A DNA stretch of 64,000 nt from Leptonemataceae bacterium (GTDB lineage: Bacteria; Spirochaetota; Leptospiria; Leptospirales; Leptonemataceae), in the NCBI GenBank assembly GCA_965227295.1, contig OZ245742.1, forward strand, positions 3,008,001-3,072,000, given 5' to 3'. This document shows positions 3,009-62,610 of this stretch, piece after piece. The notes under the pieces are model-generated. The model ran no database searches. It was not told the DNA's origin and saw nothing but the letters and a program-made list of their open reading frames with translations. The position numbers and the translations under genes were made by a program. Numbering within the stretch: the stretch's first letter is position 1; every line of letters starts with the position of its first letter.

Positions 3009-3953
3009 TCAGCCGCCGAAGCGTTGGCCGCTCCGGAGGCCGAAGACCTCCACGAAGCGCGGGCCCGAGTAGAGTCCGGCCTCGGTCCACAGCACGTTCA
3101 GCCGCAGTTGTTTGTGATCGCGCGTATAGAGTCGCGGTCCGTCCGTGACGCTGATGATCGTACCCGGGGCCGCGCGTTCCTCCGGCGTCGCGTCGATGAC
3201 GTCGGCTTCCAGGACACGCACGCCCATGCCGTTGTAAACGCTGCGCGCCCCGCTGTAGGCCGGGTTCGACGCTCGCACGAGTGCTTCCAGATCCGCGGCG
3301 TTTTCCGTGACCAGGTTCAGCACAAGGTCCTGTTCGTTCGGCCGGCGGCACGCCGGATGCCGCGGCTCGCTCTGTTCCTGGAAGATCAACTCTTCCGGCT
3401 GCGATAGGAGCTGCATCACCGTTGCCGCGGCCTGCTGCATCGGACCCGCCATGCGGTGCAGGTGCAACGTGTAGGTGTCGTGGGCGGCCACGGTGAAACG
3501 TTCCTCGTGCAGGATGGGACCGGCGTCGAAGTTGTCCTCCATGCGCTGGACCGCCACGGCGCTTTCGGTTTCACGATAACGAATCATCCAGAAGATGGGG
3601 TCGATGCCGCGGTAGTCCGGAAGCAGGCCCGTGTGAAAATTCAGGAACCCCAGGCCTGGTTGTTCCAGCGCTTCCGCCGGAATCTTAAACGGAAAACATA
3701 ACACGAGGACGACGTCCGGTCGAAGTTCGGCCAGCCATGCCTGGAGTTCCGTTGCGAAGTCTTGTTCCGAAAAATTTCGCAGATGTGTTTCAGAAAACGT
3801 TCCGGCCCAGGGCCGGCCGCGGACCAGGGACCACATCGCTTCGCTCCGCGGAGTGCCCACTCCGACGAGCCGGCCGGTGGAGTGCAGATAGTCCAGGGCC
3901 GGCAGCGCCACGGGATGGCTGCTCAACACGGTGATACGTTCGGCATGCGGCAT
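3009..3953 (-). CDS. Methionyl-tRNA formyltransferase-like protein (formyltransferase family)
   Basis: NFHTGLLPDYRGIDPIFW, FDAGPIL, LVRASNP C-terminal domain; divergent N-terminus suggests a non-housekeeping paralogue. Confidence 0.8.
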   Translation of the reverse strand: MPHAERITVLSSHPVALPALDYLHSTGRLVGVGTPRSEAMWSLVRGRPWAGTFSETHLRNFSEQDFATELQAWLAELRPDVVLVLCFPFKIPAEALEQPGLGFLNFHTGLLPDYRGIDPIFWMIRYRETESAVAVQRMEDNFDAGPILHEERFTVAAHDTYTLHLHRMAGPMQQAAATVMQLLSQPEELIFQEQSEPRHPACRRPNEQDLVLNLVTENAADLEALVRASNPAYSGARSVYNGMGVRVLEADVIDATPEERAAPGTIISVTDGPRLYTRDHKQLRLNVLWTEAGLYSGPRFVEVFGLRSGQRFGG

Positions 3954-4048
3954 GGGTCAGAATTGCGGCCGTCTCGCGCACGGCATCCATTTTTATCGAC
4001 TTACTAAAAGTTCTTGCAGAGATGTTAGCAGTTCGTCTTGTGTAGGCT

Positions 4049-5149
4049 ATGACTGAAACCGTCCCCGGCGTACCCACCGATCCCCTCGAGCGCCTGCGTC
4101 GCATCGCGGCGGCTCTAATGGATGTCGACAACGACCGTGATACCCTGAGTGAGGCCCTGCGCGCGGCTCACTCGATCTTTCAAGAGATTCACAGTGTTGT
4201 CCTCGCCGAGGGCGACAAATCGACGCGCTATCGCAAACCCTCGCCCTTCGGAGAATTCCTCTCACCGGCCTACGCCGCCCAGACCATGCAGGATCCGTTG
4301 CGCACGACGAAGTACCTGCGCGGCCTCATGCATGCGATCGAAGCGGCGGCGCAGGAACATCCCGACGAACGCATTCACGTATTGTATCCCGGTTGCGGTC
4401 CCAACGCCCCGTTCTTGATCTTTCCGGCGCTGCTCCTGGGCAATCCCGCACGGGTGGGCTTTACCCTTGTCGAGGTTCTGCCGGAGGCCGTGCGGCCGGC
4501 GGAGCAGCTCATTCGCGGTCTGGGACTGAGCGACTATCTGTTGCGCCTGGTGGAGCAGGATGCCACGGAATTTCAGTACGAAGAATCGCCGGAGAACGGC
4601 GGCCCCGTACGCGTGATTGTTTGCGAGGCTTTGCGTCGTGCGCTGAGTCACGAACCCCAGGTGGCCATCCTGCGCCGGCTGTTGCCCCAGGGTGTCGACG
4701 GCGGCCGCGGAGTGCGGCTGGTTCCGGAGCGCATCGTGCTGAACGCCATGCTAACCTCTCCTTCGTATGAGTTAAGCCGATTGCCGCGAGGCAGCCGCCC
4801 GCGCACGGGGCCGCGTGTCGATCTGGGCGAGGTTTTTTCGCTCGATCGCGAGACGATTCTGGGCTGGCGCGAGGACGATCCGCAGGGCTACGCCGGGCGC
4901 ACGAAGTTTCCGGCGCGATCGTTGACGATGCCCGACGAAATCGGCGAGGCCGATCAACTGACTATTCTTACGAAGTTGTATTTTCCGGGCGGTGAGGTCC
5001 TGGATGAATGGGAGAGCGGCCTCACATCGAATTTGCTGGTCACCGACCTCGGCGCCGCCCGCCCCGGCGAACAGATCGAGCTCGAGTACGAACTGAGCGA
5101 AGATCCGGGCTTGCGCTTTTATCCCGTGGCGAAACCGTCGCGGTTCTAG
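4049..5149 (+). CDS. Class I SAM-dependent methyltransferase-like protein (PRMT5-like bacterial family)
   Basis: VLYPGCGP SAM motif I, acidic TLVE, VIVCEALRRALSHEPQV. Confidence 0.6.
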   Translation: MTETVPGVPTDPLERLRRIAAALMDVDNDRDTLSEALRAAHSIFQEIHSVVLAEGDKSTRYRKPSPFGEFLSPAYAAQTMQDPLRTTKYLRGLMHAIEAAAQEHPDERIHVLYPGCGPNAPFLIFPALLLGNPARVGFTLVEVLPEAVRPAEQLIRGLGLSDYLLRLVEQDATEFQYEESPENGGPVRVIVCEALRRALSHEPQVAILRRLLPQGVDGGRGVRLVPERIVLNAMLTSPSYELSRLPRGSRPRTGPRVDLGEVFSLDRETILGWREDDPQGYAGRTKFPARSLTMPDEIGEADQLTILTKLYFPGGEVLDEWESGLTSNLLVTDLGAARPGEQIELEYELSEDPGLRFYPVAKPSRF

Positions 5150-13672: not shown

Positions 13673-14467
13673 ATGAAACTTAACAAAATTGCGCCGGCAA
13701 TATTCGTGCCGATCGTTTGCGTCGCGTCATTGATCGCCTGCGGGCCGGGCCCGTCCCCCGGCGCTCTGGGAGCGACCATCGATGCCCACGGCGGCTATCA
13801 TACGTTCTTCGGCTACGGCACGGTGGAGTATGATTTTACGGACTTCCCGTACGGCGTGAATCCACCCTACGATGATCATCATACGATTGATCTAAAGAAT
13901 CGCAACGTTCACATCCGGGGCGAGGGCTACACGGTCGGCTTCGACGGCTCCGAGGCCTGGATCGAAAACCCGGAAGCCTTCGGGATTCCGGCGCGGTTCT
14001 ACTACAACACGCCGTTCTACTTCTTCGCGCTCCCGTTCGCTTTCGGTGATCCCGGCGCGAACGTCGAAGCCCGGGGCACGAAATCCGTCGACGGCAAATC
14101 GTATGAGATCTATTACGTAAGCTTCGCCGACGGCGCCGGCGATACGCCGGACGACGACTATGTCGTATATGTCGACCCGGAGACGAAGCAGATGGTCATG
14201 GCCTCGTACATCGTTACGTTTCCGGCCTTCGCGCAGGGCAAAGAGCCGGCGGAATTACCCCGAAGCGCCGTAGCTTACGAGTGGCAGAAGTTAGACAACG
14301 GGCTTACGGTGGCCTCCGCGTTGAACTTCCACGCCTTCGACGAAGAACTGGTGCTCGGGCCGAAGGCCGGTACGGTGAATTTCGAGAATGTAGAGTTCAA
14401 AACCGAACGGCCGGAGCCGGCGTTGTTCCGGAGGACCGAGGCGGCCGTCGTGGACGATTCGCTGTAA
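13673..14467 (+). CDS. Lipoprotein (DUF6503-like)
   Basis: Lipobox LIAC; IDAHGG, FYFFALPF, GDTPDDDY. Confidence 0.65.
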   Translation: MKLNKIAPAIFVPIVCVASLIACGPGPSPGALGATIDAHGGYHTFFGYGTVEYDFTDFPYGVNPPYDDHHTIDLKNRNVHIRGEGYTVGFDGSEAWIENPEAFGIPARFYYNTPFYFFALPFAFGDPGANVEARGTKSVDGKSYEIYYVSFADGAGDTPDDDYVVYVDPETKQMVMASYIVTFPAFAQGKEPAELPRSAVAYEWQKLDNGLTVASALNFHAFDEELVLGPKAGTVNFENVEFKTERPEPALFRRTEAAVVDDSL

Positions 14468-14643
14468 TGGACGCCGGTTAGGAGGTTCGGGAGCTTTGCG
14501 GTGCACGGGTAGCTGTCAGGATAATTCCACTTCCTTGGATTTTGAGTTGAATTTTTGTCGGTGTCTGATAGGATTATGTCCCGGACATTCTTGCACCCAA
14601 TGGTGTAGGCCGCCGAATTGCTGAGCCAACGGTCCATTTGCAT

Positions 14644-15039
14644 ATGAATTTGGAATACTGGGGTAGTTTGGCCAGCATCGCAGGGTTGGTCTTATCCTTG
14701 ATACTCGTGATTATCGGGTTGCGCTTACGTGGCAAACTGCACTATGCAGCTCACAGGAGTTTCAATGATGCTCGTATCGATTGGCACAATACGCTGGATG
14801 CCTGTCAGCGCAATCTCCTGGAAGACGATATCTATGACCGTAGCATGAATCACCAAATGGTACGAGTGGTAGATCAGTACTCTCACCTTCGACGCTTGCT
14901 TTCCCTTAGAGAAAGGTGGTTACTGTGGAGGCTGAGAGGTTTACTGGCAAAGGATCCGGTATACATGGATCGACGCAAACTGGGTCTGGCCCTGGGCCAC
15001 TTTATTCAACGCTTTTCACGGGAGCGGGATTTTCTGTAA
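14644..15039 (+). CDS. Hypothetical protein with N-terminal TM helix (AT-rich islet)
   Basis: WGSLASIAGLVLSLILVII; stop overlaps next ATG (TAATG). Confidence 0.6.
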   Translation: MNLEYWGSLASIAGLVLSLILVIIGLRLRGKLHYAAHRSFNDARIDWHNTLDACQRNLLEDDIYDRSMNHQMVRVVDQYSHLRRLLSLRERWLLWRLRGLLAKDPVYMDRRKLGLALGHFIQRFSRERDFL

Positions 15040-15461
15040 TGAAACGATCTATTCCTGAATTTATCGAGAAATTGGTGAGCCTCACAAAGAGTGGCGACCT
15101 GGAATGGAGGCGCGTCTTACCTGGTGATCTTGAGGAGACAGACAAATTCACGCCGCCCATATTGTCTCTGATCCAGATGCGGATGCCTGACCTTCTCAGC
15201 CGCCCCGAAGTTGAGTCGTTTGCCGCGGAGTATTCAGGTGGTCGAGTCGTCTTGAGACGCTTTTCCTTGCCTCCGACTGCAACGCATTTTCTTGAGCCGC
15301 CATCGTCTTTAATACTTGCGTTGCAACCGGCCGTGGACGGACGTCTTGAAGCGCTAAACGGCCACGAGGAATATCAGTCCCCACTCATTAGACTGTACAA
15401 TCTCATCATTCATAAGCGTGTGCCTGTAGAAGATTATATAGAATCATTTTTCTCCGATTGA
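15039..15461 (+). CDS. Hypothetical protein (AT-rich islet)
   Basis: ATG at 15039 coupled to upstream TAA; MKRSIPEFIEKLVSLTKSGDLEW. Confidence 0.6.
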   Translation: MKRSIPEFIEKLVSLTKSGDLEWRRVLPGDLEETDKFTPPILSLIQMRMPDLLSRPEVESFAAEYSGGRVVLRRFSLPPTATHFLEPPSSLILALQPAVDGRLEALNGHEEYQSPLIRLYNLIIHKRVPVEDYIESFFSD

Positions 15462-15562
15462 AGGAGATATGCTGCCAGCCGCATTTCCCTCTCTCATCCT
15501 TTCAACCTCCTGTAAATTTTTTCTTTCTTCCCGCGCACGTTCCTGAGTACCTTTCCATCTCC

Positions 15563-17401
15563 ATGACGACGTTTACCGAAATCGTCGCCCCGCTCAAGCA
15601 GGCCGTGAACCAGGCGCCTCAGGTCCCGGGCTGTTATCAGTGGAAGGACGCGAAGGGCACGGTGCTCTACATCGGCAAGGCAGTGAACCTGCGCAACCGG
15701 CTGCGGAACTACGTCACCGGCCAGCCCGCCGATCGCAAGACCTACAATCTCATGTGTCGCGCCCGGTCGGTGGAGTGGATCGTTACCGATACCGAAAAAG
15801 AAGCGCTCATCCTCGAGGCGAATCTTGTTAAAAAAATCCAGCCGCCGTTTAATGTCCGTTTAAAAGATGATAAGCGTTACCCGTACGTCTGCGTCTCGCT
15901 GTCCGAGCCGTTTCCGCAAATTTTCATAAGCCGCCAGGTCCGCGACGACGGCAACGCCTACTTCGGTCCCTATACCGACGTGCGCGCCACGCGGAACATG
16001 ATCGCCCTCATTCATAAGATCTTTCCCGTGCGCAAAGTACGTCAGCGTTTGCCGCTCAAGAAACCGAAGCGGCCGTGCATGAACTATCACATCAAACGTT
16101 GTCTCGCACCGTGCACCGGCGAGGTTCCGGAAGACGAGTACCGTAAAGTCATCGACGAGATCATCCTCTTTCTCGAAGGGAAGCGCGAAATCCTGGAGAA
16201 CCTCATCATCGGACGCATGCAGGAGTACAGCGAGGCCCAGGAGTACGAGATGGCCGCGGCCTACCGCGACATGCTCAAGAACATTCGCACGGCCACCGAG
16301 AGCCAGAGCGTCATTCAGGCCGGCGCCGCGGACGAGGACGTCATCGCCTTCGCGCGGCGCGACGATCACGGCCAGCTCGTGGTCATCGAAATTCGCGGCG
16401 GGCGTATGTTAGGGCGCAAGTCGTTTCCGTTGATGGGGCTCAGCGAATCGTCCGAGGCGGAGGTCCTCGAATCCTTCGTGCGCGACTATTATTTGCAGGC
16501 ACCGGTGCTGCCGTCGCGCATCGTGCCGCCTTCGAACGTGCCGGCGGCCCGGCGCCGCGTTCTGGAAGACGTGTTGAAAGATCGGGCCGAGCGCCGGGTG
16601 CGCATCGCCGCGTCGCGAGCGCCGCAAATGCGTCCTCTGATTAAGTTAGCACAAAAGAACGCCGAGTTATTGTTAAGCGAGCGCCTGCTGGCCACGCGGC
16701 TGCGCGATCGCGAGACGGCGCTCGAAGATTTGCGTAAGATGTTCGGCCTCGAGGCGGCGCCGGCGGTGCTTGAGTGTTACGACATCTCGCACTTCCAGGG
16801 CGCGGAGACCGTGGCCTCGGGCGTCATGTTCGTCGACGGCGCCCCGCATAAGGCGGGCTATCGTCACTATCGCATTAAGAGTCTCGACGAAGGCGGCATC
16901 GACGACCCCGCTTCGATTCGCGAGGCGGTGGGCCGGCGCATCCAGCGTTTGTTGAACGAAAACCGCGCGTTGCCGGACTTGATGGTCATCGACGGCGGCG
17001 CCACGCAACTCGCGGCGGCCTGCGAAGCGGCCACGGCCCTCGGCGCGGGGGAGCTGCCCATCGTGAGTCTCGCGAAACAACGCGAAGAGATCTACCTGCC
17101 CGGCGACGTCGATCCGCGGGCGTTTGATCCGAATCGCCCCGGCATGCGTTTGCTCCGGCAAATCCGCGACGAGGCGCACCGCTTCGCGATTACGCATCAC
17201 CGCTCGCGTCGCAACAAACAGACGTTGCGCCACATCCTGGACGACGTCGAGGACATCGGCCCCGCGCGGAAGAAGGCGTTGCTCCGGCACTTCGAAGACC
17301 GCAAAATAGAAGAAGTTAGCGCGGAGGAGTTAGTGGAGGTTCCGGGCATCGGTCCGGAGCTGGCGAAGAAGATTCGCGGTTTTTTGGATGGGAAGGTGTG
17401 A
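15563..17401 (+). CDS. uvrC: Excinuclease ABC subunit C
   Basis: GIY-YIG (PGCYQW...LYIGKAVNLRNR), LKDDKRYPY, ECYDISH, IDGG, IRDEAHRFA, HhH C-terminus. Confidence 0.97.
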   Translation: MTTFTEIVAPLKQAVNQAPQVPGCYQWKDAKGTVLYIGKAVNLRNRLRNYVTGQPADRKTYNLMCRARSVEWIVTDTEKEALILEANLVKKIQPPFNVRLKDDKRYPYVCVSLSEPFPQIFISRQVRDDGNAYFGPYTDVRATRNMIALIHKIFPVRKVRQRLPLKKPKRPCMNYHIKRCLAPCTGEVPEDEYRKVIDEIILFLEGKREILENLIIGRMQEYSEAQEYEMAAAYRDMLKNIRTATESQSVIQAGAADEDVIAFARRDDHGQLVVIEIRGGRMLGRKSFPLMGLSESSEAEVLESFVRDYYLQAPVLPSRIVPPSNVPAARRRVLEDVLKDRAERRVRIAASRAPQMRPLIKLAQKNAELLLSERLLATRLRDRETALEDLRKMFGLEAAPAVLECYDISHFQGAETVASGVMFVDGAPHKAGYRHYRIKSLDEGGIDDPASIREAVGRRIQRLLNENRALPDLMVIDGGATQLAAACEAATALGAGELPIVSLAKQREEIYLPGDVDPRAFDPNRPGMRLLRQIRDEAHRFAITHHRSRRNKQTLRHILDDVEDIGPARKKALLRHFEDRKIEEVSAEELVEVPGIGPELAKKIRGFLDGKV

Positions 17402-29118: not shown

Positions 29119-30741
29119 ATGTCCACCGAAACCCGTAAAGGTCCCGGCCCAGCTCTGAACAATAACGCGGACGGCGCGAACGATTCTTCCGATGCTGCCG
29201 AACAAGAACAGCAGACAATTCATCACCGCTTGCGACTGCGCACGCTGCTGTCCGGCGATTACGAAGACGTCAAAGAGATCATGGACGCGGTCTACCCGCT
29301 CATGCACGGGGCCTGGCTGCGGTCGAACTACGAACAACTCATCACCCGTTTTCCCGAGGGGCAGATCTGCATCGAAGACAACGGCAAGGTCGTCGCCGCG
29401 GCGCTGGGCATCCTGGTGGACTACTACAAGTTCGGGGACAAACACACCTACGAACAAATCACCGGCGCCGGCCGTTTCGATACCCACGATCCCAGCGGCG
29501 ATACCCTCTACGGTGTGGACGTCTTCGTGCACCCGGAGTACCGCGGCCTGCGCCTGGGCCGTCGCCTTTACGATGCGCGCAAAATGCTCTGCGAAGAACT
29601 GAACCTGCGCCGCATCGTCACCGGCGGACGCATTCCCGGTTATCATAAAATCTCGGAAGACGTCAGCGTTAAAGAGTATATAAATAAAGTTAAGAACGCC
29701 GAGATCTACGATCCGGGGCTTTCGTTTCAGCTTGCCAACGACTTTCACGTGCGCAAGATCATCACGGACTACATTCCCGAGGACGTCGAATCGCACTCTT
29801 ACGCCACGCTGCTCGAGTGGATCAACATCTACTACGAAGAGAAGCGCTCGCACCTGTTCCCCGCGCGAAAGACCGTCGTACGCGTCGGCGCGGTGCAGTG
29901 GCAAATGCGCCGCGTCACTTCCATGCAGGACATCGTCGATCAGATCGAGTACTTCACGGACGCCATCGCCGGTTACAACGGCGACTTCGTGTTGCTCCCG
30001 GAATTCTTCAACGGCCCGCTTATGGCCGAGTCGAACGAAAAGACGCCGGCCGCGGCCATTCGCCACCTGGCCTCGTATACCGAAAGTCTGCGGGACGCCA
30101 TCGTCGACCTGGCGCTGGCGTACAACATCAACATCGTTGCGGGCAGCATGCCGCAGATCATCGACGATCGCATTTACAACGTTTCGTATCTCTGCCGCCG
30201 CGACGGCACCTACGATTCCCAGGCGAAGTTGCACATCACGCCGGACGAAGCGGCCTACTGGGGCCTCGCCGGCGGCCATCAGCTCTCGGTCTTCGAGACG
30301 GACATCGGTAAGATCGGCGTGTTGATTTGTTACGACGTGGAGTTTCCCGAACTCTCGCGCCTCCTGGCCGAGCAGGGCATGAAGATCCTGTTTGTCCCGT
30401 TCTGGACGGACACCAAGAACGCCTATCTGCGCGTGCGTCGTTGCGCTCAGGCTCGCGCCATCGAAAACGAGTGTTACGTCATGATCACCGGCAGTGTCGG
30501 CAACTTACCGAAAGTGGAGAACATGGACATTCAGTACTCCCAGGCCGCGGTCTTTTCTCCGGCGGACTTTGCGTTTCCTCACGACGCCATCATCGCCGAA
30601 GCCACGCCGAATACGGAGATGACGTTGGTGTCGGACCTGGACCTGGACCTGCTCAAAGATCTGCGCTACAACGGCAGCGTGCGGAACTTTCGCGATCGGC
30701 GGCTGGATTTGTATCGCGTGAACTGGGTGAAAGAGGATTAG
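29119..30741 (+). CDS. Bifunctional GNAT acetyltransferase / carbon-nitrogen hydrolase
   Basis: VHPEYRGLRLGRRLY; LPEFF, KLHITP, ICYDVEFPE, ARAIEN. Confidence 0.93.
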   Translation: MSTETRKGPGPALNNNADGANDSSDAAEQEQQTIHHRLRLRTLLSGDYEDVKEIMDAVYPLMHGAWLRSNYEQLITRFPEGQICIEDNGKVVAAALGILVDYYKFGDKHTYEQITGAGRFDTHDPSGDTLYGVDVFVHPEYRGLRLGRRLYDARKMLCEELNLRRIVTGGRIPGYHKISEDVSVKEYINKVKNAEIYDPGLSFQLANDFHVRKIITDYIPEDVESHSYATLLEWINIYYEEKRSHLFPARKTVVRVGAVQWQMRRVTSMQDIVDQIEYFTDAIAGYNGDFVLLPEFFNGPLMAESNEKTPAAAIRHLASYTESLRDAIVDLALAYNINIVAGSMPQIIDDRIYNVSYLCRRDGTYDSQAKLHITPDEAAYWGLAGGHQLSVFETDIGKIGVLICYDVEFPELSRLLAEQGMKILFVPFWTDTKNAYLRVRRCAQARAIENECYVMITGSVGNLPKVENMDIQYSQAAVFSPADFAFPHDAIIAEATPNTEMTLVSDLDLDLLKDLRYNGSVRNFRDRRLDLYRVNWVKED

Positions 30742-32519
30742 CTCCGGTTCGCTTCGGCTCGGGCGTCGGCATCATCGTGTAACTTTGCATTCAGCAATCG
30801 TCGCAGACGCGCATCGTAGTCCGCGGAGTCACGCGCTGATTCGATGAACGCCTGCAACTGTTTCGCATCGCCGCCGTGCTGGATGTAATGCTGCGGCCAT
30901 TCGAGAGACAGGGTGGTACCTTTGGCGAGTAACAGGAGGCGGTCGTCATCCGGGCGTGCTTGCGTGCGCTGAATCTCCAGGTAGTACTGAAAGCGCAGGG
31001 TGTTGAAGAAGCGTACGTACTGGCGCGGGTTGGAGCGGAGCGCGTCACGGACGGTGCGAAAAACCGCGGCAATTTCCGGTGTGCGTTCGTCGTACTCTTC
31101 GGATAGTTTCTCCATGACGGCGGCTTCGCGCAGGGAGGTTGATGCGACCGTCGCTTCTTCCAGGGTCGGCGGAGATGATGCGGGTGCATCTTGCGAAGTG
31201 GTCGCCGCGGGTTGAGTGGCCGGCTCAGCTCTTTGTATGATCGACGGGCCTTCGGCACCGCTGAGGTGATCGATGTAGTCGTGCACGGCCTGAATATCGG
31301 CCTCGGGCAGATAGATGATGAACTGCACGATCTTTTCCAGAAAGCGCTGGCCGAACGGCAGCTCGTTTTCGGGCGCGCGGACGTAGCGTTCCAGATCGAA
31401 GTCGATCGGCCGGTTGCTGAATTCCAGGGCCGCACGAAAGTACCGGCGCACCGCGTTGCGGATGATGCGTTGGTCGTCTCGTTCGCCGCGAAGGCGTGCG
31501 CGCAGGTAGACGGAGATGCCGCGCAGACTCAGGTGCGGCGGGTGTCGTTTTTCTTTGCGGGGCGGCGGTTGTAGCTTGCGTTCGAGCATTTTCATGAAGC
31601 TCGATTTGCCACGACCCCAGGGGGCATCGACGGCGATGACGAGGGGTAACTGCGTTTCGCGGGACTTTAAGAATGTGTGCAGTGCGTTTACGATGGGCGC
31701 GAAACCGAGGCGGTCGACTTGCGTGGGGGCGTCGGAGAGGAGGTGGCGGTGGAGATGGGGGTTTTTGGGCGTTAATGCAGATACGAGAAGACTGGAAAGG
31801 ATTGGGGCGAGATAAGGATTGTTTTTGATTATCATTTTACGGAAACTGTGCCAATCCTTGCTTGCAGATATCAGGTACATTTCGTACCGTAAGATATGGA
31901 CAATCCCATGCTCTTCCAATTGGGCGAGTTGCACCTGCGTACCAAGCAGGTCGAACACAACGAGATGTCCCATCGGGGGGCCTTTGGCAGACACGGAGGT
32001 CCTTTCGACCGAAAGTAAATGCGTAAAGCCGACCCCGGTAATCCACAGGAAGATAAGGTCATTTCCCCGGACTTCGCCAGGAACTGGCAAGTTTATGGAA
32101 TCGTCCATATACAATTTAGAAAGCCGATGGATGTCGCTTTCGGTGGCCTTCAGGGTCCATAGTTGACGAGTTGCCCGGTGAAGAAAAATTTTGTTCTGTT
32201 CAAACCATTTTAGTATTCCCGGATGACGTTTGGAGACTCTCGATATTATTTCGAGTAGCTCATGGCGATCGATTGGTCCAGACTGAAACTGATTCTTGAG
32301 CTCCTGCCAGATACCTGTGATGTTGACAGGCTTACTCAGCCGATACTCCGTGGCTGATTCAGATATTGGAAAGATTGCAACCCCTGTAATCCCTTGAGTC
32401 CGCCGATAGAAGAAAACAACGTCCCCGTCCTCGATTCCCTCCGGATAAATCCATTCGGGCCCGCCGTCGAAACGTTTCGCGCCGCCCGACACGGCCATCC
32501 AGAACTTCGGCTCACGCAT
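30738..32519 (-). CDS. KAP-family P-loop NTPase with N-terminal tandem EVE/PUA-like domains; apparently internally deleted
   Basis: DRLGF, IAVDAPWGRGKSS, FLEKIVQ, NPRQYVRFFN; no FNAW or DDLDRC segment. Confidence 0.7.
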   Translation of the reverse strand: MREPKFWMAVSGGAKRFDGGPEWIYPEGIEDGDVVFFYRRTQGITGVAIFPISESATEYRLSKPVNITGIWQELKNQFQSGPIDRHELLEIISRVSKRHPGILKWFEQNKIFLHRATRQLWTLKATESDIHRLSKLYMDDSINLPVPGEVRGNDLIFLWITGVGFTHLLSVERTSVSAKGPPMGHLVVFDLLGTQVQLAQLEEHGIVHILRYEMYLISASKDWHSFRKMIIKNNPYLAPILSSLLVSALTPKNPHLHRHLLSDAPTQVDRLGFAPIVNALHTFLKSRETQLPLVIAVDAPWGRGKSSFMKMLERKLQPPPRKEKRHPPHLSLRGISVYLRARLRGERDDQRIIRNAVRRYFRAALEFSNRPIDFDLERYVRAPENELPFGQRFLEKIVQFIIYLPEADIQAVHDYIDHLSGAEGPSIIQRAEPATQPAATTSQDAPASSPPTLEEATVASTSLREAAVMEKLSEEYDERTPEIAAVFRTVRDALRSNPRQYVRFFNTLRFQYYLEIQRTQARPDDDRLLLLAKGTTLSLEWPQHYIQHGGDAKQLQAFIESARDSADYDARLRRLLNAKLHDDADARAEANRS

Positions 32520-32589
32520 AACTGCACATGATTCACAGTTACGCCGTGAGGACGCCACTGATTTTCAAACGAACGCCGAGGGGGTGACG

Positions 32590-59266: not shown

Positions 59267-60061
59267 TCAGGCGTCCTCTAAGACTCCGCGTTCGCGCAGT
59301 AGTTCTGCGGAGAGCCCGGTGGCCTCAATGACCGTGGCCGGATCGATCCCGAGTTCCAGCAAGCGCCGGGCAGTGTCGAGTTTGCCTTCTGCAATGCCTT
59401 CTTCACGGCCTTCTTCAATGCCTTCCTGGCGAATCCAATCGTAGACGGGAGACTCAAACATCAACGGACCTGCCTGGCGCATGATTTCCCGCGCACGCTC
59501 GGGATCGTGGATTCCAGTATAGATGTATAAAACCGAAAGTAAACTCGTTTTTTCATCCGGTGATAGGTTGTCTTCGTTTTGGATGCGTTGTCTTGCGCGC
59601 TCGACATACTGGTCGCCGTCCTGCATCAGGGGGATAAACGGCAGGATCGACACCCCGGCATCAATATAATCTGCTGCGGGCAATTCCCAGAGTTTCACAA
59701 GATGATAGCGAAATCGCAGGGCGTGGTCCGCGTACACATCTCGCGCGCCGGCATGCGGCCGAATCAAAAATACAAGCGCATCCACCGGCAGGCGATAGCG
59801 CAGCCAATAACGTGCATGGTACTCCACCAATCGCATGGGCAGGCCCGTCTCCCAGTTCGTCTGGTACTCTACTAAGACGACACGTTCCTCTCCGGATGCC
59901 AGAGTCATACGAACCGGCGCGTCGGATCGACGGACGTTGACGGTTTCCGTCGGCAGTTCGTCGAGAGTCTGAATTGCCGACGGCCGGACCTGTAGGAACT
60001 TTTGTAAGATCTCGTGTCCGCTGATCTGCATGAATTCTTTGGATGCGATGTCGTACTGCAT
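59267..60061 (-). CDS. Rpn family recombination-promoting nuclease/putative transposase-like (PD-(D/E)XK)
   Basis: YDIASK, RRSD, LVEYQT, MRLVEY, LPFIPL, EGIEEGREEG repeat, HTH-like tail ATGLS. Confidence 0.8.
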   Translation of the reverse strand: MQYDIASKEFMQISGHEILQKFLQVRPSAIQTLDELPTETVNVRRSDAPVRMTLASGEERVVLVEYQTNWETGLPMRLVEYHARYWLRYRLPVDALVFLIRPHAGARDVYADHALRFRYHLVKLWELPAADYIDAGVSILPFIPLMQDGDQYVERARQRIQNEDNLSPDEKTSLLSVLYIYTGIHDPERAREIMRQAGPLMFESPVYDWIRQEGIEEGREEGIAEGKLDTARRLLELGIDPATVIEATGLSAELLRERGVLEDA

Positions 60062-60229
60062 GACGCGGCCTGCCAGAGCTGCGTCCAGTATATCAGATCC
60101 GGGTTGGTGTCAAGGAAGAAATGTAGAATGGATCGCGATGTGCGGGCTGCTTTATGAATCGCCTGTAATGTCTCGCAGTCAGGATGCTGCGGTAGTCACG
60201 AGTGGTGAAGCAGGGGATAGGGTGCCCTT

Positions 60230-60721
60230 TCAGATTTCACGGATATATCGAATGGGAATGAACGAGATGTTTTCCGTCTGATCTAGCTTCCCGTCATCTT
60301 CGGCGCCCGTTACGGCGATGCCGACGACTCGACCGCTCTTATTGAACACTGGTCCGCCACTGTTTCCTGCAACAATACCCGAGTCGAGCAGGATACGTTT
60401 GATTCCGGAAACCATTCTATGGCCCGTGATTCGGACTTCCTTTCGGATGCCGGAGTCTCCATGGCGATAGTTTGGAAAGCCGCATACATATAGTGTTTCT
60501 CCGGTGTGGTAAGATGCGTTGTATTCCGCCTGAAAAGGGATTGTAGACACGGATGAATAGCACTCACAGACTGCAAGGTCGATGTCGGACGACCTTTTCA
60601 CTAAGTTGAGGGAGAAACTCTTGGTATCCTGATCGCGCAAGAAGGCTTTCGAATCTGCAAATACGACATGATCGCAAGTTACAATGCCCAGATCTTCCAA
60701 GGCGAATGCTGTTCCCTGCAT
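60230..60721 (-). CDS. Trypsin-like serine protease (retron effector; in frame with RT, domain extends to 60787)
   Basis: GTAF, VTCDHVV (His), DIDLAV (Asp), GFP, GNSGGPV (Ser), VVGI. Confidence 0.9.
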   Translation of the reverse strand: MQGTAFALEDLGIVTCDHVVFADSKAFLRDQDTKSFSLNLVKRSSDIDLAVCECYSSVSTIPFQAEYNASYHTGETLYVCGFPNYRHGDSGIRKEVRITGHRMVSGIKRILLDSGIVAGNSGGPVFNKSGRVVGIAVTGAEDDGKLDQTENISFIPIRYIREI

Positions 60722-60787
60722 AGCCTCCTGCTCAGATTCTACAACGAATATGCTGTTCCACTCAGAAATCGGAGGTGGTGCGACAAT

Positions 60788-61774
60788 TTAATCTGGAAGC
60801 ACGGATCTGAGTCTATCAAAGTAATTCTGATACACGGGATGATAAGGCCCCAATATCGCATATAAAAAGCTGAGCTTGCCGTTGATATGATGTACCAAAG
60901 ACGGATCGCGATCGCGGTATCGATTCCTATTTGCATATTTCGTTGAGAACTCTTCTTGGGTTTTCTTCAGGTCTTCCTTCCGTATTTTGCTGTAAATCGC
61001 TCTGAGCTCTCTTATGAATTTTCTGCCCGGAGTGACCGAGCTAGTCACTCGTAGGCCGGTGACGATTCCGCCGTTACTACCGTAGTAGAATTTTTGTTTC
61101 CGGCGGTTAATATGAAACCCATTTTCTTGGATGCAGTCCTCTATAGTATTCTGTAGAGATTGAGGTAGTTGGCCCGGGGATGACAGGTATTTCTTACTGC
61201 GGGATGAAAATGTAAGGTCGTCGGCGTAACGAGTATAGAATATCGAATATTCTCGGGCAACGGAGAGAAGATCGCGATCCATACTTCTGCAGACGATGTT
61301 AGACAGGATCGGAGATGCCGGAGAGCCAAGCGGAAGTGCGTTATCCAATGTGCTTAGCCTTGAAATGGCAACCGCGACTTGTTTATTGAAGCAAAAAGGT
61401 CTACCTCTTAGAGCACCGAGCACTCTTCCGAAATTGATAGAACCGAAAAAGTCCTCAAGATCCAGATTTAGAATCCACGCCGCGCCAACGTGCTGCCTGG
61501 CATTCGTGATAATACTCCGGCCAGTTCTGAAACCATGAGTCGAGCCCGGCGCAGTGTACGATTGTTCCAAAAGGGTTTTGATTTTCCTCTGCAAGGCTTT
61601 GAGGTAACTACCCGGGGCCGCAATTTGGCGGGCCTTTCCTTCGTATTTCACAATTTCGTGGCGACTGTAGAAGGAGGGCAGGTAGGCCTTAAATGCAAAG
61701 AACTCTAACCCTTTGTAGCTAACATTCAAAATTTGTGCGAGCTGGTGTAGGTTCCCCGGATAATTCGTTTCCAT
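60788..61774 (-). CDS. Retron-type reverse transcriptase
   Basis: RQIAAP, HGF, NARQH (retron NAxxH), DLEDFFGSI, LPLGSPASP, YTRYADDLTFS, IVTGL (retron VTG); ATG 61774 with GAGG upstream. Confidence 0.93.
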   Translation of the reverse strand: METNYPGNLHQLAQILNVSYKGLEFFAFKAYLPSFYSRHEIVKYEGKARQIAAPGSYLKALQRKIKTLLEQSYTAPGSTHGFRTGRSIITNARQHVGAAWILNLDLEDFFGSINFGRVLGALRGRPFCFNKQVAVAISRLSTLDNALPLGSPASPILSNIVCRSMDRDLLSVAREYSIFYTRYADDLTFSSRSKKYLSSPGQLPQSLQNTIEDCIQENGFHINRRKQKFYYGSNGGIVTGLRVTSSVTPGRKFIRELRAIYSKIRKEDLKKTQEEFSTKYANRNRYRDRDPSLVHHINGKLSFLYAILGPYHPVYQNYFDRLRSVLPD

Positions 61775-61785
61775 AAGTAAAAATA

Positions 61786-61912
61786 GCCTCGTTAGAGTTC
61801 GCACTCTGATACATCAACCGACTACAGTCAGTCGCAAAGTCACATAAAGCGTTCTCAGGATTCATGTCCTGAATCGGCTGCAGTAACAACAGCCTTGAAA
61901 AACTCTGGAGGC
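61786..61912 (-). ncRNA. Putative retron msr-msd ncRNA
   Basis: Terminal arms GCCTCCAGAGTT (61912-61901) / AACTCTAACGAGGC (61799-61786) enclose hairpins at 61876-61894, 61855-61872 and 61819-61834; directly upstream of the retron RT. Confidence 0.6.
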
Positions 61913-62135
61913 AGTTGCAAATGGGCCTTCCCAATGCTCACATTTATTGTTATTAGTAGGATCAAAACTAGTTATAGTGGGTTTAGGGTCAATACAATAA
62001 GCCAGCCTGATATCCCGTCGTCTTACTGAAGCTCTCATCCTCCTGTAAAATCTTCCCCATCTGCCACCGCCCGCCAGAATGTCAGCCCCACGCAAAAAAT
62101 CGCAACCGAATCGCCCCATCGGCACGCCTTCTCTC

Positions 62136-62151
62136 CGGCACGCCGGTTGCA
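62136..62151 (+). promoter_or_regulatory. Putative sigma54 (-24/-12) promoter of hsp20
   Basis: CGGCACG-CCGG-TTGCA with exact GG-N10-GC spacing, ~55 nt before ATG. Confidence 0.65.
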
Positions 62152-62205
62152 ATCCTCTTACCAACAGCAGCGGCCGACCGCCGCACATAGACTGGAGGAA
62201 CAACA

Positions 62206-62610
62206 ATGGCAGCATTAACGAAATACCGTACCCCGAGTCTCCTGGACCTCTTCTACGATGAAGAGCGGCGCCCGGAAAGCCGGAAGTACCGCCCGGCCGT
62301 AGCCGTACGCAAAAACGAGGCTGAGTATCAGCTCGTCGCCCATCTGCCGGGCGTGCGCAAAGAAGACTTGAACATCGCCGTGGAAGACGGCGTGCTCAAG
62401 ATCAGCGGCAAAGTCGCGGCGCACGCGGCGGAAGGATACGAAACCATCTACGACGAACTGCACGGCGCCGCCGAGTTCGAGCGCAACCTGAAGATCGATG
62501 CACGTCACTTTCAGGTAGATCGCATCGAAGCGAAGTTAAGCGACGGTGTGCTGACGGTAAACCTGCCGGTGGCCGAGGCGGTGAAGCCGCGGCAGATCAG
62601 CGTGGGTTAA
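62206..62610 (+). CDS. Hsp20/alpha-crystallin small heat-shock protein
   Basis: LPGVRKEDL, LKISG, FERNL, AKLSDGVLTVNLP, PRQISV; GGAGG RBS. Confidence 0.92.
   Translation: MAALTKYRTPSLLDLFYDEERRPESRKYRPAVAVRKNEAEYQLVAHLPGVRKEDLNIAVEDGVLKISGKVAAHAAEGYETIYDELHGAAEFERNLKIDARHFQVDRIEAKLSDGVLTVNLPVAEAVKPRQISVG

Follow-up and report, generated by a model that had tools for sequence, protein, structure and literature searches.

A type XI-like retron of a Leptospirales bacterium with an in-frame stop between reverse transcriptase and protease, and a candidate upstream RNA in its family

A retron-type reverse transcriptase (RT) and a trypsin-like serine protease are encoded one behind the other on the minus strand of a 64,000-nucleotide stretch of a Leptonemataceae genome (contig OZ245742.1; this whole stretch is called the window below), and the locus raises the question of whether these are two genes of a working retron or the two halves of a single gene that has been broken. 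A first-pass annotation of the same DNA had taken them for an intact system. This can no longer be maintained, since both lie in one frame, broken by a single TAA that is followed by 22 sense codons before the first ATG of the protease: with the TAA read as X, positions 60230-61804 translate into one uninterrupted frame of 524 residues with a single X at position 339. Our preferred explanation, which we hold to be probable, is that a type XI retron has recently acquired a nonsense mutation in its linker, which disables or weakens the system. This reading is drawn from the common frame with its one stop and open codons, from the fused state of the family, from the conservation of the linker, from the lack of conservation of the protease ATG and from the lack of decay on either side of the stop.

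Classification of the two halves

Both halves contain the motifs that the first-pass annotation had read in them, namely NARQH, YADD and IVTG in the translation of the RT and TCDHV, DIDLA and GNSGGP in that of the protease. The family alignment, made up of 71 sequences including that of the window, bears them out. Its invariant columns include N101, D195, D196, T249 and G250 in the RT and H379, D409 and S482, the catalytic triad, in the protease; A102, H105 and V248 vary very little. Pfam recognises RVT_1 in the RT (87.3 bits, E = 1.5e-24, above the cut-off) and the whole of Trypsin_2 in the protease (64.1 bits against a cut-off of 27.6, E = 3e-17, profile positions 1-144 of 144). The RT is likely to start at the ATG at 61774, because the PADLOC alignment begins at residue 18 of the longer open reading frame (ORF) and the database holds the 328-aa form.

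All of the best 25 of the 69 PADLOC families are retron RT models, and the top ten for this RT all belong to the clade-8 fusions (types XI, XII and I-C). RT-Protease_XI comes first (312.1 and 308.7 bits, profile positions 10-321 of 510), followed at small margins by RT-TIR_XII (304.5 bits) and RT-Toprim_I-C (300.1 bits). The RT-Protease_XI single-gene model is also the one matched by the protease ORF (118 bits, profile positions 349-502 of 506), the two ORFs being collinear with these two segments of one single-gene profile of about 508 positions. Among the NCBIfam models, retron-TIR and retron Ec67 reach about 250 bits with the RT, as against 70 for the group II intron model, 41 for Drt3a and 15 for AbiA. 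In the Foldseek comparison, the retron RTs Eco2, Ec86, Eco7, Ec83 and Ec78 fill ranks 1-13 of at least 500 structural matches. Retron Eco2/Ec67 is both the nearest solved structure and the nearest characterised relative of the RT, with about 27% identity, E = 1.1e-95 in the profile search and 1.6e-24 in Foldseek. For the protease half, the PDB yields HtrA/Deg profile matches of about 1e-17 and DegS by Foldseek at 6e-11; no RT-protease structure occurs among the 60 profile rows shown of the 148 matched, nor among the structural matches listed.

The PADLOC, NCBIfam and structural matches argue for a retron RT of clade 8 in the classification of Mestre. The possibility that the RT is of a different kind (group II intron, diversity-generating retroelement or UG/Abi) and merely lies next to a protease, with no retron at all, draws on the generic RVT_1 similarity and on nothing further, and it runs against the retron nature of the PADLOC models, of the NCBIfam scores and of the structural ranks as well as against the presence of NAxxH and VTG; we regard it as extremely improbable and effectively excluded. 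The first-pass annotation had already proposed a retron-type RT and a known class of RT-protease retrons, and PADLOC's RT-Protease_XI is that class. Two outcomes that it had named as contrary to its reading were also looked for, and the RT was found to cluster with the retrons and its homologues to be linked to a protease.

Among the matches listed, the closest relatives of the locus are fused type XI proteins of Leptospira (a sister clade), with 43-46% identity. To judge from its sequence, the locus is type XI by descent and not by the letter of the definition, which asks for a single ORF where here there are two.

The stop between the two halves

A split of this kind does not appear to be normal in the type XI family. 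The read-through protein, used as a query, retrieved 1860 proteins at E <= 1e-10 among 8000 scored candidates. Of the best 120 of these, which were listed, the 328-aa RT of the window is the only short one. All of the remaining 119 are full length (452-581 aa): 118 carry RVT_1 and Trypsin_2, and one (P0004, 523 aa) aligns through the protease. A scan of genome contigs kept at least 80 clade-8 RT loci, neither the source genome nor the Leptospira relatives being among them. Twenty-five of the fetched loci encode a protease, and in 24 of these 25 RT and protease share one stop-to-stop ORF. The exception (L022, 4838-5543, from a metagenome-assembled genome, MAG, of the Parcubacteria group) has a 1-nt frameshift in the RT thumb, before the conserved M-V-K/R-G, and its downstream frame starts at the conserved family Met (M-V-K-G), overlapping the RT stop; either the mutation is genuine or the assembly is at fault. 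Since its break sits elsewhere than the TAA of the window, the two have no common split point. Among plasmids, a tblastn search with the RT gave 55 records, none of which reached 60% identity (best 34-38%), and no DNA of a close relative. One Chloroflexota locus (L013, 3923-5506) presents a further type of fusion, its clade-8 retron-type RT being joined to Schlafen AlbA_2 (E = 2.3e-12) and not to a protease, TIR or TOPRIM domain.

The phylogeny of the RTs (88 rows, quick IQ-TREE run, LG+G4) places that of the window in a clade with three fused Leptospira proteins (SH-like approximate likelihood ratio test, SH-aLRT = 99), which by parsimony makes the fused state ancestral. On this tree the protease label is scattered (13 changes), which agrees with an exchange of effectors as modules within the clade. 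RT-only ORFs of 353-365 aa, of cyanobacterial and other origin, stand amid the protease-fused RTs (L007, L008, L010, L014, L018 and L061, at about 3900-5000), and one of them, L010, pairs with the fused L006 (SH-aLRT = 98); their position suggests repeated loss or exchange of the effector.

The three closest relatives, which are P0003 of Leptospira sp. SA-E8, P0004 of L. kobayashii and P0005, have E, N and D in the column of the stop, and this column is variable across the 71 sequences. Past the stop, the 22 codons match the Leptospira linker positions A-P-x-P-x-S-x-W and I/V-x-V/M-E-S-E-x-E-A, and this segment is 45-50% identical to the Leptospira relatives, level with the domains. The column of the protease ATG is occupied by I, K, Q, N or S in the relatives, so that the ATG is not a conserved start, and the AGGAGG that ends 2 nt upstream of it corresponds to conserved Glu codons. 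An AlphaFold2 model of the read-through sequence, made with the 71-row alignment, reaches a predicted local distance difference test (pLDDT) of 92.0 and a predicted template modelling score (pTM) of 0.84, the mean pLDDT of the linker being at least 93 in each 10-residue block. It puts the stop in a predicted ordered coil (residues 336-347) that leads to a helix (348-351) and a strand (352-357), all before the Met362 that the ATG encodes. According to this model, a protease initiated at the ATG would retain the whole Pfam domain and would lose the conserved linker segment and the tether. The region around this ATG also contains an imperfect direct repeat of 31 nt (60685-60715 and 60729-60759, 74% identical, 44 nt apart) which straddles it, the two copies lying in different reading frames.

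Several scenarios may explain such a locus. One possibility is a working split retron: two polypeptides would be made, the protease by re-initiation or independent initiation at the ATG at 60721, and they would assemble non-covalently with the multicopy single-stranded DNA (msDNA) into a normal abortive-infection defence. The intact protease ORF with its full Trypsin_2 match, the AGGAGG upstream of its ATG, the lack of relaxed constraint in protease or linker, the read-through model, in which both domains are predicted to pack confidently, and the existence of stand-alone protease relatives would all suit this scenario. Nevertheless, none of the 119 other listed proteins is split, the one split among the 25 loci is a frameshift elsewhere, and the unconserved ATG lies at a Shine-Dalgarno (SD) spacing of only 2 nt. 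Moreover, a start at the ATG would omit the conserved linker helix and strand that the model predicts, and 22 codons as conserved as the domains would have to be non-coding. For these reasons a working split seems unlikely, and we think that an evolved two-gene architecture is disfavoured with respect to a recent disruption of a fused gene.

Alternatively, the stop may not be real in the cell, either because of a sequencing or assembly error or because of useful read-through, in which case the locus would encode an ordinary fused RT-protease. Such an explanation would account for a lone in-frame stop with a perfectly conserved sequence downstream, and the TAA is one substitution away from a Glu, Gln or Lys codon, the closest relative having E at this place. 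Yet the 5.9-Mb contig suggests an assembly of finished quality, and no read-through signal is known for the type XI family. The base that follows the TAA is an A, and a TAA followed by A is not known as a leaky stop context. All in all, we find it quite unlikely that the stop is unreal.

A further line of evidence comes from the absence of decay. In the 71-row alignment, the window has the shared residue at every invariant column of both halves, and protease and RT are practically equal in their identity to the other 70 sequences (protease/RT ratio 0.998, rank 69 of 71), the mean ratio of the other pairs being 0.811. As neither half shows decay, either the stop is young or the part downstream of it is still expressed and selected.

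This last ambiguity is the first of several points that weigh against a recent nonsense mutation, since the lack of decay fits continued selection as well as a young mutation. Likewise, an intact protease ORF with its full Pfam domain, its ATG and its SD-like AGGAGG is also what would be expected of a working split gene. A search of the protein database found 28 short proteins (91-283 aa, 33-52% identity) that are related to the protease and stand alone. Among the ten that were inspected, P0135 and P0140 begin in the RT thumb, at the same conserved Met as the downstream frame of L022, and for this reason look like pieces of broken or truncated fusions; P0126, P0128 and P0137 have their own N-termini, and untethered proteases are thus not unheard of in this family. 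A base-calling error may be involved, the sequence coming from a single assembly. Finally, no defence phenotype or mechanism has been published for any type XI retron in the literature searched, so that the mechanism proposed further below rests on analogy. With all these points in the balance, a type XI retron recently interrupted in its linker is still the explanation that we hold to be probable, and the stop was possibly selected because it relieves toxicity.

A candidate RNA upstream of type XI reverse transcriptases

Type XI retrons have been described as being without a recognisable non-coding RNA (ncRNA) (Mestre et al. 2020, PMC7736814). According to Toro 2026, no msr/msd structure is identifiable computationally for this type, which is listed without validated structures, and ncRNA candidates are reported for its protease-less relatives only; according to the discussion of Khan et al. 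2024 (PMC10849725), validated ncRNAs are said to include type XI. The 500 nt upstream of the RT were therefore compared in 23 distinct protease-bearing loci, all of them outside the window's own subfamily, as the set contains no Leptospira relatives.

Pairs of these loci have upstream non-coding blocks in common, with 86-98% identity. When the three strongest inverted-repeat pairs of each locus are considered, 18 of the 23 loci have one of them just upstream of the RT, with its 5' arm at -152 to -245 and its 3' end at -27 to -100 from the RT anchor and a span of 116-159 nt. This is the strongest pair in 16 of the loci and the second strongest in L006 and L053; in the other five, none of the top three pairs is found at that position. 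In 12 of the 23 loci, no more than 2 of 100 dinucleotide shuffles reach the local helix score. The arms of this closing helix, a1 and a2, are wholly different between subfamilies, yet they are still complementary, and in one alphaproteobacterial group 6 of the 35 predicted pairs show compensatory changes. In 13 loci the 5' arm is directly followed by a conserved hairpin whose 7 pairs are 96.7% paired (27-59% when slid); four of these pairs change on both sides, and none of 500 shuffles reaches the covariation score. In a MAFFT alignment of 20 full-length ncRNA candidates, a1 and a2 were not kept in register.

Two models were derived from these data, R1 from four alphaproteobacterial loci and the hairpin model R2 from the 13 loci, the window being left out. 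Run with filters off on six protease loci that are more distant, R1 found the site where it was expected in 5 of them (10-22 bits). It also matches the alphaproteobacterial RT-TIR loci L071 (32.4 bits) and L077 (17.6 bits). In these two type XII-like loci (3826-3941 and 3751-3860, respectively; Caulobacterales, Pseudomonadota), the same RNA architecture and hairpin are observed, with compensating changes in a1/a2. The predicted ncRNA appears to follow the RT clade and not the effector, and these comparisons argue for an msr/msd-like RNA in the canonical retrons of type XI and in some of type XII.

In the window, the corresponding candidate is a segment of 127 nt (Table 1). Its closing stem, formed by a1 (61901-61912) and a2 (61786-61799), has 5 + 7 bp on the two sides of a 1x3 internal loop, and three to four hairpins lie within it. 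The minimum free energy of the segment, -46.1 kcal/mol, corresponds to a z-score of -3.94, 1 of 200 shuffles being as stable. The start of a1 at -162, the end of a2 at -36 and the span of 127 nt fall inside the ranges of the family, and a motif resembling R-A-G-n-G-n-G-A-A stands beside the 3' arm, where it ranks 49th of 127,966 positions. The models recognise the segment weakly: R2 matches hairpin 1 with 10.0 bits (E = 7.7 window-wide, third of three matches in 128 kb), and R1 finds the hairpin alone as a local match (9.3 bits, rank 21 of 47) and misses the full-length element. Taken by itself, the a1/a2 helix is not above chance, 89 of 100 shuffles scoring as high.

These results divide what the first-pass annotation had claimed for the region upstream of the RT. 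Its structured leader holds good for the 127 nt and not for the whole 286-nt leader, which is not unusually stable (z = -0.83); Rfam, searched over 59900-62400 with E up to 10, returned a chance flavivirus xrRNA (E = 7.2) as its sole match. Its ncRNA is plausible and, given the R2 and a1/a2 values above, not statistically secure in the window. A scan for sigma-70 promoters and terminators detected none in the leader, and its count did not exceed that of shuffled sequence. Since the individually weak matches occur together, in the right order and at the right place, it is nevertheless reasonably likely that the candidate is the ncRNA of the family. Its 5' end, 61912, is also the end coordinate that the first-pass annotation had given to the locus.

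Another pair of arms, 62056-62071 with 61910-61925, was considered as a1/a2 and rejected, as it does not enclose the family hairpin (z = -1.39). These arms form a 16-nt inverted repeat on the minus strand, with one mismatch and -24.3 kcal/mol, which spans 162 nt and overlaps the 5' end of the candidate ncRNA by 3 nt. There is also a perfect 10-nt inverted repeat (61791-61800 and 61700-61709), by which the a2 region would pair with RT coding sequence on the other side of the start codon; this may be chance, or an alternative pairing with an effect on the translation of the RT.

Genomic setting, proposed mechanism and known systems

Table 1. Positions in the window of the interrupted retron and the features next to it
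Feature	Position	Strand	Remarks
Retron RT	60788-61774	minus	328 aa from the likely ATG at 61774; terminates at TAA
RT ORF, longest form	60788-61804	minus	338 aa from GTG at 61804
Trypsin-like (S1, HtrA/DegS-like) serine protease domain	60230-60721	minus	163 aa from the first ATG past the stop
Single in-frame TAA between RT and protease	60788-60790	minus	Seen in the read-through translation
Linker, 22 sense codons from the stop to the protease ATG	60722-60787	minus	Includes AGGAGG 2 nt before the ATG
Candidate retron ncRNA (msr/msd-like)	61786-61912	minus	From fold and family layout; ends 11 nt before the RT ATG
ncRNA hairpin 1	61876-61894	minus	6-bp stem, 7-nt loop, 5 nt after a1
AT-rich island with the ncRNA and the RT-protease frame as its sole contents	60200-62050 (approximate borders)		From the GC profile
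Rpn-like ORF downstream of the protease	59267-60061	minus	Weak TIGR01784 match

The locus lies, as the first-pass annotation had noted, on an AT-rich island. The bin 60001-62000 has a GC content of 0.475, the lowest of the 32 2-kb bins of the window, which has about 0.60 overall; counted over 100 nt, the GC content is 0.38-0.58 inside the island and rises to 0.61 at 59900 and 0.64 at 62100. At third codon positions (GC3) it is 0.51 in the RT and 0.54 in the protease, as against 0.74-0.79 in seven host genes. The second lowest bin of the window is 14001-16000, with 0.537. The UvrC of the host has its best named matches in Leptospirales MAGs (60-69% identity), those in Leptospira having 50-54%, and the host seems to be a Leptospirales bacterium of about 60% GC and not Leptospira itself. 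The contrast in GC and GC3 argues for a horizontal acquisition of the island by this high-GC host, in agreement with what had been proposed at first sight. A transfer from a lower-GC member of the same order would fit, the nearest relatives being found in low-GC Leptospira. As for marks of integration, the window contains no tRNA, and a search for direct repeats on the two sides of the island found none.

No gene is shared by the surroundings of the type XI loci: the 561 neighbouring ORFs within 3 kb of 24 loci gave 0 cross-locus matches. The unit therefore seems to be self-contained, and neither the hsp20 gene nor the Rpn-like ORF would be a partner of it. The first of these flanking genes was correctly named (HSP20, E = 5e-15). 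The second name is not borne out by the match behind it, since TIGR01784 scores 47.9 bits, below the cut-off of 52.1, and covers the C-terminal 60 residues only (197-257), with no Pfam match. This ORF has an intermediate GC3 of 0.62 and is not conserved beside the other type XI loci; it may itself be foreign. Farther away, a 606-aa ORF on the minus strand (30738-32558) matches QatA, the ATPase of the Qat anti-phage system, with 44 bits, far below the cut-off of 600 and over the N-terminal 58 positions only, and may be another defence-related gene.

The proposed mechanism is modelled on Eco2, whose trimeric RT-TOPRIM is, according to the abstract of the Eco2 study, caged by its msDNA until phage DenB degrades this DNA and so sets the complex free. 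By analogy, the RT of a type XI retron would copy part of the ncRNA into msDNA and the RT-msDNA assembly would hold the fused effector inactive; damage to the msDNA induced by a phage would then free the effector, here a protease, which would cleave cellular or phage proteins and abort the infection. The first-pass annotation had likewise supposed that the RT/msDNA complex restrains the protease, which is a fair analogy with Eco2. In the copy studied here, the TAA would truncate the protein after the RT. The 328-aa RT and the ncRNA could still make msDNA. Any protease would have to start at the internal ATG and would lack both the tether and the conserved strand of the linker.

Type XI retrons are catalogued, and one more member adds little by itself. 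A copy that is cut exactly between RT and effector and is otherwise undamaged offers a ready comparison of tethered and untethered proteases; were the TAA functional, the locus could serve as a natural experiment on whether a retron effector must be tethered covalently to be caged. A bolder proposal, to which we give a low probability, goes further in both parts of this work: the TAA would be functional, making the locus a natural split type XI retron whose untethered protease is controlled by RT-msDNA or a retron in which low-level read-through gives a small and safe dose of the fused RT-protease, and, separately, the upstream RNA would be the consensus ncRNA that has so far been missing from the canonical retrons of types XI and XII. 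For automated counts of defence systems, the locus is a caution, since one PADLOC single-gene model is matched here by two ORFs. What is new with respect to the descriptions of Mestre et al. 2020 and Toro 2026 is the predicted conserved upstream RNA, flanked by a1/a2 and with a covarying hairpin, in type XI and in some RT-TIR retrons. A model of this type XI/XII upstream RNA would aid annotation and retron editing tools.

Several known systems resemble parts of the locus. HtrA/DegS-type S1C proteases have their fold and catalytic triad in common with the predicted protease of the window, and so do the protease domains of the defence proteins that PADLOC names LmuA, PDC-M35A and HamA1 (36.7 bits for LmuA against the window protease). 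Contrary to these, the window protease has no PDZ domain and no signal peptide, and it is joined to an RT and not to a Lamassu or Hachiman core. Retron-Eco2/Ec67 (type I-C, RT-TOPRIM; PDB 9lm3, 9i2f, 9s1f) has a C-terminal effector and an upstream ncRNA, as the window appears to have; its effector is a tRNA-cutting TOPRIM nuclease, whereas that of the window is a predicted protease, and the trimer and the caging are known for Eco2. Type XII retrons are RT-TIR fusions with whose model the RT of the window scores nearly as high as with that of type XI (see above), but their effector is a TIR domain and not a protease. The closest likeness is with type XI retrons themselves (Mestre et al. 2020, PMC7736814; PADLOC RT-Protease_XI), in which an RT with NAxxH, YADD and VTG is likewise followed by a trypsin-like protease in a self-contained cassette; these form one ORF by definition, whereas the ORF of the window is broken by the TAA of its linker. 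The protease-less lineages of type XI ancestry have, like the window, an RT-only ORF with an upstream ncRNA candidate flanked by a1/a2. They carry WYL or DnaB_C partners, whereas the window keeps an in-frame protease directly after the stop, and its RT, unlike theirs, groups with the fused proteins of Leptospira.

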